Assembly: GCA_051439425.1 (NCBI GenBank)
Contig: JBFRWD010000008.1
Span: forward strand, 1 to 19,188
Length of the DNA stretch: 19,188 nt
Direction: 5' to 3'
Source: Synechococcus sp.
Lineage (GTDB): Bacteria > Cyanobacteriota > Cyanobacteriia > Thermostichales > PCC-7336
A program made the position numbers and the translations under genes. Below the pieces are notes generated by a model that searched no databases, was not told the DNA's origin, and was given only the letters and a program-made list of their open reading frames with translations. Of this stretch, positions 1 through 4,773 are shown one piece after another; positions within the stretch are counted from its first letter, which is position 1; each line of letters opens with the position of its first letter.

Positions 1-627
1 CCGGAAAACCCCGAAGATAGTGGCTTTGACGTTGGTGACACTGACTTTTCTACTCAGAAGACATATTCAAAAAAAGAGGAAGAAAGTGAAAAAAAACAGG
101 GTGAGTGGAACTCTAAAGGGGGTGCGAAAGGAAAGTCAGCGTCACCAACGTCGTCGGCGTCGGAAATCGATCCGGAAAAGATCCAAGATTCGGATCCATC
201 CAGGAAGGGCGAATTTAAACATCACACACGCCCAAGCAAAGCAAGGGTGCAGACTCAATTTTCAGAAAGCGAATCGTCGCCTGGTCGAACTGAAGACGGA
301 ATCGAGGATAAAGCACACCGAGACTCCCCGCCTTCTGAGCAGGGCGGTTCTACCGGTTACCCCGACTTCATCCCTTTAGATGTCACCAACCCACCAGAAC
401 TAAACAGCCCAATCGCGATCTTGGAAAACGGCGAGCTTGTGAACGGTAGGAAGTTTCTGCAACTGGAAAGGGATGGTCGGACAGTCTGTTATAGAGAGCC
501 TAATGGCGGCATTTCTCGGCGGTGGGCAGAGGCTGTCTATGTCCTCCTATCACCCAGCCAGAACTATCGCAGCTCCCCACAGCCGCAAGAGGCACAGTCA
601 GCCGAGCAAGTCTGGGGGGTTGCCTGA
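1..627 (+). CDS. C-terminal part (5' truncated) of an element-encoded protein; low-complexity charged region, possibly the tail of a replication/primase-type protein
   Basis: Frame +1 is open from base 1 (PENPEDSGFDVGDTDF...) through the listed 247..627 ORF to TGA 625-627, which overlaps the next ATG (TGATG). Function is inferred only from context and the internal inverted repeat. Confidence 0.6.
   Translation, partial: PENPEDSGFDVGDTDFSTQKTYSKKEEESEKKQGEWNSKGGAKGKSASPTSSASEIDPEKIQDSDPSRKGEFKHHTRPSKARVQTQFSESESSPGRTEDGIEDKAHRDSPPSEQGGSTGYPDFIPLDVTNPPELNSPIAILENGELVNGRKFLQLERDGRTVCYREPNGGISRRWAEAVYVLLSPSQNYRSSPQPQEAQSAEQVWGVA
28..152. repeat. 21-bp inverted repeat flanking an A-rich spacer (origin-like)
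   Basis: 28-48 GACGTTGGTGACACTGACTTT versus the reverse complement of 132-152, GACGTTGGTGACGCTGACTTT (20/21). The 83-bp spacer has A-tracts. A 10-bp core copy recurs at 381-390 (TGTCACCAAC). Confidence 0.85.
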
Positions 628-845
628 TGTTGTCTATATCCCACGCGCCTGTCGGCCAAGAAGCGCGTCAACTACTTAGAGCAGACACAGCTGACACCCG
701 ATTTTCAAAAGTAAATGCCTTCGCCCCACCCCAGGCAAGGTTTTGGGCAAAAGAAGAAGCGCAGAAGCGCAGACACCCTCTTTATGTCCTCAACGAGCAG
801 TGCTTGAGCTCTGACGATCTCATTGCGAGGGAGGTGAGGCTGTGA
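627..845 (+). CDS. Small hypothetical protein (72 aa, MLSISHAP...EVRL)
   Basis: ATG 627 overlaps the upstream TGA and follows a G-rich stretch. Its stop overlaps the next start (GTGA 842-845). Start revised from the listed 522. Confidence 0.6.
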   Translation: MLSISHAPVGQEARQLLRADTADTRFSKVNAFAPPQARFWAKEEAQKRRHPLYVLNEQCLSSDDLIAREVRL

Positions 846-1117
846 CGACTAGTCTAAAAAGGCTGGGGCTGGCCTTCTTTCTAGCACAAGAGCAAACCCT
901 AGAGGCCCTAGAGTTATCAGATTTGCCCGCCAAGGACTCGCCCAAATATGCCGAGTTCGTTCGGTTACGAGCAACAGATTTTGCTGCCCTCAAACGGCTA
1001 GATCTACCCGAACTAACGCGCCGTTTTGCACAACGACTTTCCGAACGAGAAGATGCAAAATGTCCCGAAGTTCTTGCCGGTCAAGAGTTTGATAGAAGTC
1101 TGGTTGGGCAAAGATAG
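842..1117 (+). CDS. Small hypothetical protein (91 aa) whose 3' end overlaps the recombinase antisense
   Basis: GGAGG at ~830-834 precedes GTG 842, with GTGA coupling to the previous ORF. The last 128 bp overlap the recombinase on the opposite strand. Confidence 0.5.
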   Translation: MTTSLKRLGLAFFLAQEQTLEALELSDLPAKDSPKYAEFVRLRATDFAALKRLDLPELTRRFAQRLSEREDAKCPEVLAGQEFDRSLVGQR

Positions 1118-2417
1118 GGAGCATTGATGTGCTCATTTGCTCCTGCAAGTTCGACTCGTTCAATAAGTGATTCAGTTCATTCTCAATCTGCGCTCGCAAG
1201 CTCTCTTTCGCAAGCTCTAGCCCTTCGTTGAATGGCATGCCTTCAATGTCGCTCAAGGACTTTCGCAGCTCTCTAAGCTTGTCTGATTCTGGTCTGTCGG
1301 GTTCAAATCTTTCTACTTGCGCCGCGACTTCCTTTGCCCGTGCAGTAAGGCAATCGATTACCTGCTTTTCAAGCCCTGTGACCTCAATAGTCTTCTTCTG
1401 ATCGCAGGCTCGCTCGCGCCACTTTGAACACTGAAAGTAGTCGCGAGGAGATCCCTTGCTCCCCCCTTTGAGAGAGTAGTGAGCCGCCCCACAGTTCCCG
1501 CAGTAAACAAGCCCTGCTAGTGGATGGCGAATAGCCTTCGTCCCCCAACCCCTGTAACGCTTGTTAGCAGCCAGAATGTCGAGGATTTGACGCTCTTCCT
1601 CTCTGTTGATCAGAGCTTCGTGAGTGTCGGGAATGATCTGCCATTGCGATCTCGGTAAGCGCTTTGTGCCGCGCTTCTTCAGGTAGCAAGTGTCTCCAGC
1701 CAGAACGGGGTTAGTGAGAAACGAGCTTAGCCCTCCTGGAGAGAACCGCATCATGTCCCGACCGATTCTGCCTTTCATCCCGTAGCTAGGGCGAAAAGTG
1801 AGCCCGAAGTACTCGTTGAACTGCCTCAGCGTCGATCGCAGAGTTCGCCTTGCAAGAAAGGTGTCCACTAGGTAGCGGACGCAATCCGCACGGCTCAGCT
1901 CTTCTCCATCAACACAGAGAAAAGGCTCGCGATTAATGGCGTATTTCTCGTCAACGATTGTGTAGGAAAACGGGGGATTTACCGCCCTGCCCTTCTGTCG
2001 AAGATGCCTCCAGCCATGCTTAACCCGCTCGCCAAGTTGCTCAACTTCTGACTGGGCTAGTACTACCATCAGGCCCGCCATTGTGCGACCCCCAACCGTG
2101 CTTAGGTCTATCGAGCCATCCAAGGACTTCAAGACTACGCCTGTGCCAGTAAACAGATCGAGAGCTTCAAAAGCTGTCTTTCTAGACCTGCTCAGTCGGT
2201 CGAGGCGAGTAACTAAGACCGTTCCCACTTGTTGCCTCTCAACAAGCTCCATCAGCCTTTTGAACTGAGGACGGCGATCGCTACTCCCTGGCTGAACATC
2301 GGTGAAAAGTTCTTCTGCTCCGGCCTCCATCAACCGCGCCTTCTGCTGCTCTAGCGCGTGACTATTATTGGCTTGTTCGCGAGTTGAAACGCGGCAGTAT
2401 CCAACGGTTCGAGACAC
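990..2417 (-). CDS. Large serine recombinase/integrase (XisF-like architecture)
   Basis: N-terminal GYCRVST (catalytic Ser11), RPQF, and VTRLDRLSR resolvase motifs. Central recombinase domain (LTNPVLAG...HEALI). Zn ribbon LAGLVYCGNCG...YFQC...C, then a coiled coil and the typical LVRKVVV C-terminus. 475 aa, GTG start. Confidence 0.95.
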   Translation of the reverse strand: MSRTVGYCRVSTREQANNSHALEQQKARLMEAGAEELFTDVQPGSSDRRPQFKRLMELVERQQVGTVLVTRLDRLSRSRKTAFEALDLFTGTGVVLKSLDGSIDLSTVGGRTMAGLMVVLAQSEVEQLGERVKHGWRHLRQKGRAVNPPFSYTIVDEKYAINREPFLCVDGEELSRADCVRYLVDTFLARRTLRSTLRQFNEYFGLTFRPSYGMKGRIGRDMMRFSPGGLSSFLTNPVLAGDTCYLKKRGTKRLPRSQWQIIPDTHEALINREEERQILDILAANKRYRGWGTKAIRHPLAGLVYCGNCGAAHYSLKGGSKGSPRDYFQCSKWRERACDQKKTIEVTGLEKQVIDCLTARAKEVAAQVERFEPDRPESDKLRELRKSLSDIEGMPFNEGLELAKESLRAQIENELNHLLNESNLQEQMSTSMLPIFAQPDFYQTLDRQELRDILHLLVRKVVVQNGALVRVDLAV

Positions 2418-2478
2418 AGGAACTAAACGCTGTTACTAACTTGCTATTGTATAATTAATTTAGGAACAAAACACCGTT
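2418..2478. other. Putative attachment junction (attL/attR) with an imperfect 17-bp direct repeat
   Basis: 2418-2434 AGGAACTAAACGCTGTT versus 2462-2478 AGGAACAAAACACCGTT (14/17). Palindrome AATTAATT at 2453-2460, where comM homology ends. Confidence 0.7.
2446..2455. promoter_or_regulatory. Overlapping divergent -10-like hexamers at the element end
   Basis: Minus-strand TACAAT (2446-2451) lies 28 bp upstream of the recombinase GTG. Plus-strand TATAAT (2450-2455) points out of the element. No convincing -35 for either. Confidence 0.35.
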
Positions 2479-3393
2479 GTGAGCTAAAGAGATTTCCCCC
2501 GGTCGCGGATACGAACCGCCTCCAACCAATGACACTCCTGATGCCGAGTGGTGTGGAGCTCGAAACGGGCGATCGCTGACAATGGCAGCATGATGCAAAC
2601 TACTCCCCCCCTGCCGTAGCAATCCTGCGACAGAGTATACCTGCGTGACCTCTAATACTTCCGACCACGTGAGAGGAGGCAGCAAACCAGGTAAGCGTTT
2701 GGCCAGCATGGTTTTTCCCGCTCCAGGGCTCCCTACCAGCAACAAATTGTGCCCTCCTGCTGCGGCCACCTCTAATGCTCTACGCGCTAACATTTGCCCT
2801 TTGACATCGGCTAAATCGGGAATCGCTAGCTCTGAACTGGACCTGAAGTCATCAGACAGGTGCTTCCAAGGGCGAACGCTTGTGGAGTCCAGCGACCACT
2901 CGATAACGTCCTGAAGCGATTCGAAGGCAAAGACATCGACTCCCTCTACCATCGATGCTTCTAATCCATTGCTTGCAGGCACAACAACTCGTTCGATGCC
3001 CATTGAACGGGCGGCGGCCACAATGGGTAATACTCCTGCAACGGGCCGCAAGCTACCGTCAAGTGACAACTCTCCCAGATATAAAGTGTTCTCTAATAAC
3101 GGTGTTTCCAGTTGACTGGAGGCTGCCAGTATCCCTAATGCGATCGGCAGATCGAAGCTCGGTCCTTCTTTACGGACATCGGCAGGTGCCAAGTTGATAA
3201 TGACTTTGCGCTGGGGAACAGTAAACCCAGAGTTTTTGATGGCAGCCCGCACCCGTTCTTTTGACTCTTGAACGGCTGTATCCGGTAAACCTACCACCAC
3301 TGTTTGAGGCAGGCCACCGGCAACGTCCACTTCAATAGCGACTTGTAATGCCTTTAAACCTAGCAGCGTTGCCGACCAGACTTTTGCGAACAT
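2455..3393 (-). pseudogene. comM: 5' part (312 aa) of ComM/YifB Mg-chelatase-like AAA+ ATPase, interrupted at Walker B
   Basis: MFAKVWSA start (ATG 3393). Motifs VVGLPDTAVQES, INLAPADVRKEG-SFDLPIA, GELSLDG, DVKGQ, Walker A GSPGAGKT, RPFRAPHHS and PGEISLAHNGVLFL. It then reads N-stop instead of DE; about 200 aa of the ~500-aa family length are missing. Confidence 0.92.
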
Positions 3394-3487
3394 AGTGCTG
3401 CGATTTCCACATGTGTGGTTGTATCGTTGCGTCCGATCTGATGAGTTGACTACCGGGTTTCTACTCAACCTAACCTGAGTTTGATAG

Positions 3488-3524
3488 CCTTCATCCCTAA
3501 CCCCTCTCCTACGTTGGGAGGGAG
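3488..3524. repeat. REP-like palindromic intergenic element
   Basis: CCTTCATCCCTAACCCCTCTCC-TACGTT-GGGAGGGAG forms a hairpin. It resembles the CCCTCA-CCC-AACCCCTCTCC...GGAGAGGG class of dispersed repeats. Only one copy in this window. Confidence 0.45.
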
Positions 3525-3677
3525 CAAGAGACTGATTCGTTGAGCTATGAGGCAGCTTCCTGCTTAAGTGGCCCCGTCGAACTGACGCTAAGCTGCGGTC
3601 GGATTGTTCTCAGACAACTGATTTCTTGCCAGTGAATGCGTCTACGCGAGATCCCGATAGTGCCGAATATTGAATCT

Positions 3678-4535
3678 CTAATATCCAGCCGCTATCCGAT
3701 CGGCGACCATTGCTGCTTCGGGAATTCGTATAACGTCTGTTTTTAAGCTGCCATCTAGATGGAACCAAAGTTGACGGATTCCAGGAGCATCTTCATCAAT
3801 CGCAAACTGTTGGCTGCGGGGCTTAAACTGCACGCATGTAGAGGGACATCCCAAAAATCGCACGCTCCCATGTTGGTATTCCCATGCTTGGTGAACGTGC
3901 CCGAACAGCACGGCACGCACGCAGTCAAAGTCTTCCAGTATGGCCAAAAAATCGCTGGAGTTTTCCAGTGTGGAACTATCCAGCCATTGAGAATCCATTA
4001 GATAAGGAGGGTGATGCAGGCACACGGCTGCATGTTCCTGGCGATCGCTAGCTAAATGAAGTTGATGCTCGAGCCACTGCAGTTCAGATGTAGCTAGACG
4101 CCCCCCCACCTGCTGCGGTACTGCCGAATTCAGCAGAATGAATCGCCATCCCTTGCGGACGAATGCTTTGTCTTCATGTACGCGATCCTGCCCGGAGTTG
4201 GTACTAGCGATTGTCGGTTGGTTGGTTGGCGTGACGTCGCTGACTGAGCCCAATGCCATTTCCATTTCTGACAGTTGGTCGTGGTTACCAGCTAACCAAT
4301 ACGTATCTGTCGGCAGCTTGGCTACAGCACATCGAAATCTTTGGTAGGAAGCGAAGCTCCCATCCTGTGATAAATCCCCAGTGGCTAGCAGGATGTCGGG
4401 TTGATGATTCAGTGCGGAGATTGCTGCCAAAACTGTGCGAAAAGTACGATCGGTTGGTATCCCCAACAGCTGCGTTTCGCGATGGGCAAACAAGTGTGTG
4501 TCTGTAATCTGAATAGCGTAGAGGGATTCAGTCAT
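3678..4535 (-). CDS. cpdA: 3',5'-cyclic-nucleotide phosphodiesterase (CpdA/Icc metallophosphoesterase)
   Basis: Motifs QITDTHL, TGDLSQD, GNHD, LHHPP, FGHVHQ, CPSTCVQFKP and terminal GY. Start revised to ATG 4535 (MTESLYAIQ). Confidence 0.9.
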   Translation of the reverse strand: MTESLYAIQITDTHLFAHRETQLLGIPTDRTFRTVLAAISALNHQPDILLATGDLSQDGSFASYQRFRCAVAKLPTDTYWLAGNHDQLSEMEMALGSVSDVTPTNQPTIASTNSGQDRVHEDKAFVRKGWRFILLNSAVPQQVGGRLATSELQWLEHQLHLASDRQEHAAVCLHHPPYLMDSQWLDSSTLENSSDFLAILEDFDCVRAVLFGHVHQAWEYQHGSVRFLGCPSTCVQFKPRSQQFAIDEDAPGIRQLWFHLDGSLKTDVIRIPEAAMVADRIAAGY

Positions 4536-4601
4536 TCGGTATCGCGAGCGAAGAAGCCGAGAAAAGCGCGGACAGCTAGCTGTTTGCACAGATTGGTGTA
4601 G

Positions 4602-4773
4602 GTTGCCCTCAAGGGCAATTGACAATAGTGAAACTGAGATTCTGGCAACCGACCGATATGTGTTAGCGTAGCGCCTTTACCACGAGTGCAAACTCGTATC
4701 GGTTAGGTTGAGTTTCACGGTAGTTCGCCGGGCTACTTTTACAGTGCCCCCACAACGGGTCAAGAACGGCGAT
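4602..4773 (+). ncRNA. Candidate structured ncRNA with a 6S RNA-like rod; boundaries and strand approximate
   Basis: Nested pairings: 4602-4607/4768-4773, 4619-4623/4759-4763, 4633-4639/4737-4745 and 4642-4649/4723-4731. Apical hairpin ACGAGT-GCAA-ACTCGT (4682-4697) has a GNRA loop. G-U pairs favour the plus strand. Intergenic, ~175 nt. Confidence 0.45.

Follow-up and report, generated by a model that had tools for sequence, protein, structure and literature searches.

A probable integrative island with an XisF-family recombinase at the Walker B codons of comM in a marine cyanobacterium

INTRODUCTION

Why should a cyanobacterial comM gene run unblemished for 311 codons, end exactly where its Walker B aspartate and glutamate ought to stand, and give way within a few dozen nucleotides to the gene of a large serine recombinase (LSR)? 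The question is raised by a 19,188-nucleotide (nt) stretch of DNA, hereafter the window, that comprises bases 1–19188 of contig C8 (the start of that contig; GenBank JBFRWD010000008.1) in a metagenome-assembled Synechococcus sp. genome, G000 (GCA_051439425.1; 182 contigs, 96% complete). The answer developed below, which we hold to be very probable, is that an integrative island from a horizontally mobile lineage of XisF-family elements has inserted at the Walker B codons of comM in this marine cyanobacterium; as long as it stays in place the gene would be inactive, and its excision could make the gene whole again. An earlier note on this DNA, made from the letters alone, had put forward a candidate excision-controlled competence switch, a proposal that fares less well.

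THE TRUNCATED comM GENE

On the minus strand, an ATG at position 3393 opens a 312-codon comM frame (2458–3393) whose final codons read GGT GTT TTG TTC CTA AAT and which closes with TAA at 2455–2457. The first 311 are ordinary comM codons, free of stops and frameshifts; the last, the Asn codon at 2458–2460, is element-derived. At the position of AAT TAA, four relatives have Leu/Phe-Leu followed by GAT/GAC GAR, encoding the Asp-Glu of Walker B. The continuous ComM/YifB frame with its Walker B Asp-Glu is therefore lacking, an Asn codon and a stop standing in its place. The stump contains the complete Lon-like ChlI domain (PF13541, 1–121 of 121) and only positions 1–112 of the 207 of Mg_chelatase (PF01078), so that comM is cut in the middle of its AAA+ module. 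The Walker A motif, GSPGAGKT, is kept, and the stump by itself scores 382.8 bits against the YifB model TIGR00368 (cut-off 362.4). It is 86% identical at the amino acid level to the whole ComM of the genus-mate G003, and the closest ComM proteins in a protein search are cyanobacterial, at 86–87% identity, which identifies the host as a cyanobacterium. On all these particulars, the intact 5′ half with its motifs, the replacement of the Asp-Glu codons by AAT TAA, and the complete, co-oriented LSR gene 37 nt further on, the earlier note had described the locus correctly.

Where, then, is the rest of the gene? The only other comM sequence in the assembly is C161:1-489, at the edge of a contig that starts within the gene and carries codons 352–514 without a stop. 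These 163 codons are 89% identical in amino acids to the whole G003 gene and match PF01078 positions 153–206 together with PF13335. Between them, C8 and C161 hold the ComM/YifB domain set of Lon-like N-terminal domain, AAA+ module and Mg_chelatase_C, with profile positions 113–152 absent from the assembly. The earlier note had expected a 3′ half to the left of the window, with an NPCPCG-type motif; such a part does exist, is intact over 163 codons and reads straight across the motif, but it lies on C161, the window itself beginning at base 1 of C8. As C161 starts at codon 352, beside the NPCPCG site used in genome G216 (see below), a second insertion in G000 was considered, and was rejected because the contig reads through that motif. 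Searches of the assembly (tblastn and blastn, with the whole G003 gene as query) gave no match to codons 313–351, a run of 39, nor to the far junction (attR), and the contig ends of C8 and C161 have no 21- to 55-mers in common with any contig.

The same searches revealed no second comM in the assembly, the remaining matches being AAA+ paralogues at no more than 28% identity; the separate intact copy that the earlier note had named as a refuting case is thus not borne out. C8 rightwards from 2471 and C161 correspond to the two sides of a single G003 locus, including 150 bp downstream of comM and, upstream, a metallophosphoesterase gene. The latter, identified by Pfam at 3678–4625 of the minus strand in the window, is chromosomal flank outside the element and is syntenic with the gene upstream of the whole comM in G003. 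Two other competence genes of G000, ComEC and DprA, are present with open frames. On C161, a tRNA-Arg(CCT) gene is found at C161:564-638 (L004), 72 bp past the comM stop.

THE XisF-FAMILY RECOMBINASE

The gene that follows the comM stop on the same strand, after a gap of 37 nt (2418–2454), occupies 990–2417 of the minus strand, with a GTG start at 2417, a stop at 990–992 and a product of 475 residues. Its Pfam domains are those of an LSR: the Resolvase catalytic domain (PF00239, 3.2e-31, residues 5–144), followed by the C-terminal Recombinase (PF07508) and Zn_ribbon_recom (PF13408) domains, both above cut-off. NCBIfam NF041201, the XisF equivalog, is matched with 425 bits against a cut-off of 375, in agreement with the XisF-like label that it had been given. 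The protein retains all residues found invariant across 17 homologues, including Y7, R9 and S11 (the YxRxS serine motif), R71, R74 and the zinc-ribbon cysteines C306, C309, C330 and C338. Its closest relatives among 5.8 billion proteins are 41–44% identical and nearly all cyanobacterial, several of them labelled XisF; the best match in phage records is 23.6% identical, and the best in IMG/VR are at 29–32%.

XisF works with XisH and XisI, in a heterocyst-specific manner, and resides in and excises the fdxN element. Here the interrupted gene is comM, not fdxN, so that the name fits the protein family and not the function. XisI (PF08869) gave no match in G000, in a search in which the control genomes were equally silent and most of the element is unassembled. 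A 4676-base metagenome contig carries both a 306-residue ComM stump and a 43%-identical recombinase (P0236 and P0017), and probably represents one more junction with the window's layout.

ANATOMY OF THE JUNCTION

Contigs of public sequencing runs help to place the breakpoint. A separate assembly of the run that is the probable source contains a 7223-base Logan contig that covers window positions 447–4000 across the junction, which is consequently not an artefact of the present assembly. Its empty counterpart comes from X2, a run of another study, in which a 1089-base contig, matching the comM 5′ half at about 95.6% identity, tracks the window to base 2462 and then diverges. The diverging letters, reverse-complemented, translate to DELTEFRREV; a close relative thus possesses an uninterrupted comM, and the breakpoint falls inside the CT with which the Leu codon CTA (2461–2463, minus strand) begins, or immediately past it. 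The inferred crossover dinucleotide is this CT, at 2463–2462. No joined or empty-site form was found among the assembled contigs of the source run, although contigs cannot show rare forms and their silence is no evidence of absence.

From the Leu codon inwards lies the element-side arm of attL, the P′ arm (2418–2460, minus strand), which is also the entire 5′ leader of the recombinase gene. It bears an ACAAT at 2450–2446, and this motif, about 10 nt from the crossover, is common to 8–9 of 10 aligned junctions of the window's layout. The arms of 10 junctions open with an AAT/AAC-like or Asp-mimicking codon, and that of the window is nearly identical to the arm of an Egbenema record over 12 nt. 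At the G204 junction (L077), the arm mimics the lost codons and the stump reads LFLDEFT, and the stumps of L092 and L088 end in LFLDS-stop; by such mimicry the Walker B Asp or Asp-Glu is retained in the truncated protein.

The window supplies attL and X2 an empty attB; the central dinucleotide common to attL and attR is known from three relatives with complete Walker B elements. For these, every dinucleotide common to attL and attR was scored for the dyad symmetry of the rebuilt attP. In all three, symmetry was best (12, 11 and 15 of 22) where the codon before Asp contributes its first two bases (offset −3), which is the very point where X2 and the window diverge. Excision at this dinucleotide rebuilds Leu-Asp-Glu in the geometry of the complete relatives, and would be expected to do so in G000. 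In G090, whose junctions (L069, L071) have the opposite-orientation layout, crossover is inferred to take place at AT, a dinucleotide identical to its reverse complement; conceivably, a serine recombinase could there insert its element in either orientation.

Taken in order, the proposed events are as follows. The island would have entered by LSR recombination at the roughly 40–50 bp of comM that encode Walker B, with the crossover in the CT that opens the Leu codon preceding Asp, and the window would represent its left junction, attL. The resident copy would yield a 312-residue ComM stump that keeps Walker A and is devoid of the catalytic Asp-Glu, the later AAA+ elements and the C-terminal domain, so that the branch-migration helicase of natural transformation is presumably inactive for as long as the island stays. 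The recombinase gene would begin 37 nt inside the island and read inward, as in its relatives, and precise excision would rejoin the Leu-Asp-Glu codons.

THE SAME SITE IN OTHER CYANOBACTERIA

The earlier note had called for a survey of cyanobacterial genomes for the same site and recombinase clade, and such a survey shows Walker B insertions to recur. Recombinase homologues gathered from 40 relatives and from 400 genomes sampled across the phylum amount to 31 loci, six of which have a comM piece directly beside the LSR homologue. Both comM halves stand on one strand around the element in G063 (~41 kb), G268 (~56 kb), G090 (~42 kb) and G216 (~72 kb), and are split over two contigs in G204 and G072. 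The cut is at Walker B in G063, G268, G090 and G204, in NPCPCG (about residue 355) in G216, and near residue 110 in G072; a screen of the phylum sample with whole ComM adds G140, also cut near residue 110, with a remoter serine recombinase. The recombinases of G216 (G216:C1:3995488-4068918, L072–L075) and G268 (L066–L068) are sisters (100/100), with sites at NPCPCG and at Walker B, respectively, which suggests that the target was switched within one gene. In G290 (G290:C262:10963-45401; L080, L081), comM lies in three pieces on one strand, cut near residues 245 and 400 by elements of about 15.5 and 17.3 kb; one has two Phage_integrase genes, DUF6262 and a DnaB-like helicase, the other a 506-residue tyrosine recombinase at its junction. 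Overall, LSRs are thus found at residues of about 110, 310 and 355 of ComM and tyrosine recombinases at about 245 and 400.

At least 8 of the 400 sampled genomes have an element in comM. The tally leaves out G107, G208, G345 and G355 (two matches, the best full-length) and the weak single-match cases G041, G047, G062, G100, G124, G139 and G153; also set aside are frameshifted genes or remnants (G340, G397, G349) and cuts by contig ends (G133, G338, G121, G092). In 39 of the 40 closer relatives the comM frame is whole, the remaining one being cut by a contig end, and the congeners of G063 and G268 have a whole comM as well. No comM was found in 22 of 401 sampled genomes.

A scan of named records, restricted to the best 80 loci in species-representative genomes, gave the same picture. 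A comM piece abuts the LSR start in 13 of these 80, invariably at residues 306–318. Seven of the 13 show the window's layout (Phormidium, Rhizonema, Nodosilinea, Leptolyngbya, Egbenema, Nostoc and "Cyanobacteria bacterium SBLK"), and in six (Cronbergia, Cylindrospermum, two Nostoc, Phormidesmis and an Oscillatoriales metagenome-assembled genome) the recombinase lies on the opposite strand, at the far end. The gap between comM stump and recombinase is 18–41 nt in seven related near-layout loci. The codon position of the window's junction is that of 17 other loci (four genomes of the sample and 13 named records); as the two collections overlap, these represent 13–17 distinct Walker B genomes besides G000.

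HORIZONTAL MOVEMENT AND SELECTION

Remoter homologues of the recombinase lie beside nifH at six loci and beside nitrogenase-type genes (nifD/K) at three; these are the classical heterocyst elements. In a tree of 31 recombinases, all comM-associated members fall across the midpoint from the nif-associated ones.

Within the comM-associated group, element and host do not diverge in step. Pairwise synonymous divergence (dS) was compared among six carriers. Two Nostoc records (L089, L090) have recombinases at a dS of 0.04 and adjoining comM 3′ halves at 0.36, the signature of one element lately transferred between species, and another carrier pair shows the reverse discordance (2.3 for the LSR, 0.7 for comM). 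Such disagreement means that the elements move between hosts, and intact comM halves then need no explanation beyond recent arrival. The 5′ half in G000 is indeed undecayed, with a ratio of nonsynonymous to synonymous divergence (dN/dS) of about 0.13 relative to X2 (26 synonymous and 10 nonsynonymous codons, from the 38 listed of 45 differences). The earlier note had taken this lack of decay to fit either reversible excision or recent arrival; the observation stands, and recent arrival suffices to explain it. The G090 and G204 elements are syntenic, 67–78% identical and of host-like divergence, with comM halves at dN/dS 0.05–0.08, and were considered as proof, through vertical inheritance, of selection on a split comM; the discordant dS among six genomes ruled this out. 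Stable inheritance with the host lineage is likewise contradicted by the empty site in X2 and the whole comM of 39 of 40 relatives.

CONTENT OF THE ELEMENT

Only 2.4 kb of the G000 element are visible, comprising the recombinase and two open reading frames (ORFs) of no known family in the interior that reaches the contig end (1–989, plus strand). One, ORF 1–627, is 5′-open and encodes 208 residues rich in Ser, Glu and Pro without a Pfam or NCBIfam family; the other, ORF 842–1117, overlaps the 3′ end of the recombinase gene. Neither has a homologue in four related elements. Window positions 1–476 occur in the source run as two alleles, on short contigs at depths of about 9 and 13–17 with common parts at 22.5, which accounts for the end of C8 at this place; the sample thus contains the element interior in a second related copy or strain. 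A 1551-base contig of the same run extends 1368 bases past the window start.

A complete relative gives a fuller idea of what such elements contain. The 37 ORFs of the G063 element include a copper/metal-resistance set, a HicB toxin–antitoxin-like gene, HNH and PD-(D/E)XK nucleases, an AAA_25 helicase-like protein and a TrwB-like ATPase, and no phage structural or packaging gene was found among them, the G000 element being visible for 2.4 kb only. This content, like the remoteness of the phage and IMG/VR matches to the G000 recombinase, argues against a prophage. Elsewhere in G000, at C167:6537-8470 (L167), an AAA_22 ATPase and a YdjM-like membrane protein form a pair 31–43% identical to pairs in the comM elements of G063 and G268; as nothing else ties this pair to the G000 element, it is left unassigned, and it may represent a part of that element or some other island.

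RELATION TO KNOWN SYSTEMS

The novelty tentatively suggested by the earlier note was set too high. Homologues annotated as "magnesium chelatase/ATP-dependent protease" serve as targets for 12.4% of predicted site-specific LSRs, and the LSR targets are enriched in competence genes (Durrant et al., 2022; PMC10083194). As in G000, the LSR there integrates site-specifically within a YifB/ComM-type coding sequence; the passages concerned name no cyanobacteria, XisF clade or Walker B position, which the supplements may list. The Wolbachia prophage WO variant sr1WO similarly integrates into a magnesium chelatase gene by means of an LSR and leaves gene parts on both sides of the element (PMC9203015). 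It is, however, a tailed prophage of an endosymbiont, whereas no phage gene was seen in the comM element, the phage and IMG/VR proteins nearest to its recombinase are 24–32% identical, and its relative in G063 looks like a cargo island.

Within cyanobacteria, Table 1 of Hilton et al. (2016; PMC4874684) gives 22+3 interrupted orthologues, and comM is not among them. The fdxN element with XisF and the other heterocyst interruption elements described there share their recombinase family (NF041201) with G000; they differ in that the comM lineage has another target, some non-heterocystous hosts and horizontal movement, and in that XisI was not found here (with a silent control). Alike in phylum, target gene and proposed benefit, the inactivation of competence, are the type I-B1 CRISPR-associated transposons (CASTs) and a tyrosine-recombinase element of cyanobacteria, for which comM is the target (Hsieh and Peters, 2022; PMC9881144). 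These operate by guide-RNA transposition or tyrosine recombination, and the G000 element by a serine recombinase; the two G290 insertions may be of the tyrosine-recombinase kind just mentioned. In Proteobacteria, site-specific mobile elements disrupt comM in Acinetobacter baumannii (AbaR/Tn6022), Aggregatibacter, Mannheimia, Francisella and Pseudomonas syringae, and an anti-curing rationale has been advanced (Croucher et al., 2016, PMC4774983; 2025 review, PMC12378983). These cases resemble G000 in effect and rationale, but belong to other phyla and use other integrases or transposases. The literature searches made here turned up no account of cyanobacterial comM interrupted by an XisF-family or other LSR element, although the supplements of Hilton et al. 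(2016) and Durrant et al. (2022) may hold such cases.

ALTERNATIVE EXPLANATIONS

Could the element nonetheless be a programmed switch? Such an element would stay in its lineage, excise when a particular cue is given (starvation, darkness, DNA damage or the induction of competence, for instance), and rebuild comM, after the models of the fdxN, nifD and skin elements and the Listeria comK prophage; transcription from the comM promoter could run on into its recombinase gene. We regard this behavior and its read-through variant alike as unlikely. It is true that both comM parts and the recombinase are intact, that the recombinase belongs to the XisF family, with remoter members in nifH and nifD/K-type genes, and that the short gaps of the seven near-layout loci would suit transcription from the host gene. 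No terminator- or promoter-like site stands between stump and recombinase in G000, a scan of 800–3700 having given no match ahead of the recombinase on the strand that encodes it, and match counts not above those of shuffles. The low dN/dS of the comM halves in G000, G090 and G204 points the same way at first sight; since element and host do not co-diverge (dS 0.04 vs. 0.36 and 2.3 vs. 0.7), however, there is no way to date this purifying selection to the period in which comM was split. The site is occupied in a patchy rather than lineage-bound manner, with X2 empty and comM whole in 39 of 40 relatives and in the congeners of G063 and G268, six related elements carry a far-end, opposite-strand recombinase that read-through from comM could not drive, and the metal-resistance and transfer-like cargo of G063 is typical of islands. 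With horizontally mobile elements, an empty site at about 95.6% identity and no excision product among the contigs, the competence switch of the earlier note is left unsupported here.

At the other extreme, the element might be fixed and its recombinase no longer acting, with comM a young pseudogene bound to decay. The missing attR and 39 codons and the want of an empty-site contig in the source run would accord with such a dead end, as would the decayed comM of G340, G397 and G349 and the 22 of 401 genomes in which it was not found, which mark the gene as dispensable. We nevertheless give this little credence: the recombinase keeps every invariant catalytic and zinc-binding residue, 311 + 163 comM codons are free of stops and frameshifts at low dN/dS, and the missing stretch coincides with a contig break, for which the second interior allele in the source run is the usual kind of cause. 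Least credible by far is an error of assembly or binning, whether a chimeric junction or comM parts drawn from different organisms. A metagenome-assembled genome in 182 contigs, with the window at a contig end, C161 starting inside comM and no overlapping contig ends, certainly invites the suspicion, and the earlier note had raised it. It is countered by the separately built contig that crosses the junction, by the conserved ACAAT arm motif, by a codon position matching that of 17 other loci, and by the similar identity (86% and 89% in amino acids) of both parts to one G003 locus.

The mobile-island reading thus remains the one we prefer, and several considerations temper it. The absence of any relative of the LSR above 46% identity means that the mobility of the G000 element would be that of its family. 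Support for the whole comM-associated group in the tree is weak (37/92), an inner clade (92/97) excludes G000, and the G000 branch is long (1.18). With attR, 39 codons of comM and the greater part of the island missing from the assembly, restoration of the frame in G000 is presumed from its relatives; C8 and C161 are joined by binning and synteny only. Finally, the effect of a comM insertion on transformation in cyanobacteria is one that we infer, the literature found offering no measurement, and in other bacteria the loss of ComM reduces transformation without abolishing it (PMC12378983).

IMPLICATIONS

Why comM? Two explanations are plausible: that the gene offers a conserved landing site with a wide host range, or that its disruption shields the element from removal by transformation, as the published idea of intragenomic conflict holds. 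At least five positions in comM are used by serine or tyrosine recombinases, besides the published CASTs, and this convergence at the level of the gene speaks for a benefit to the elements from disabled transformation. In the reading preferred here, an XisF-family lineage would have colonized one comM site repeatedly and horizontally across cyanobacterial orders.

A bolder extension, to which we attach only a slight chance, is that the comM-targeting XisF branch as a whole works as a conditional switch, in which the recombinase, 16–48 nt behind the stump on the same strand with no terminator, is transcribed from the comM promoter and competence induction triggers excision. If true, excision would rebuild the helicase and free the element as a circle before incoming DNA deletes it, a competence-coupled counterpart of the heterocyst elements in cyanobacteria that do not differentiate.

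More immediately, in many cyanobacteria the proteins automatically named "fdxN element excision recombinase XisF" are integrases of comM islands, and the name misleads. The closest kin of the classical heterocyst nif-gene elements are horizontally mobile islands, which bears on the origin of developmental DNA rearrangements. Strains used for genetic work, such as those of the Nodosilinea, Phormidium, Egbenema and Nostoc records, may transform poorly owing to an island of this kind. Mobile elements are already known to land in comM, and to these the case adds a cyanobacterial lineage that is well documented.

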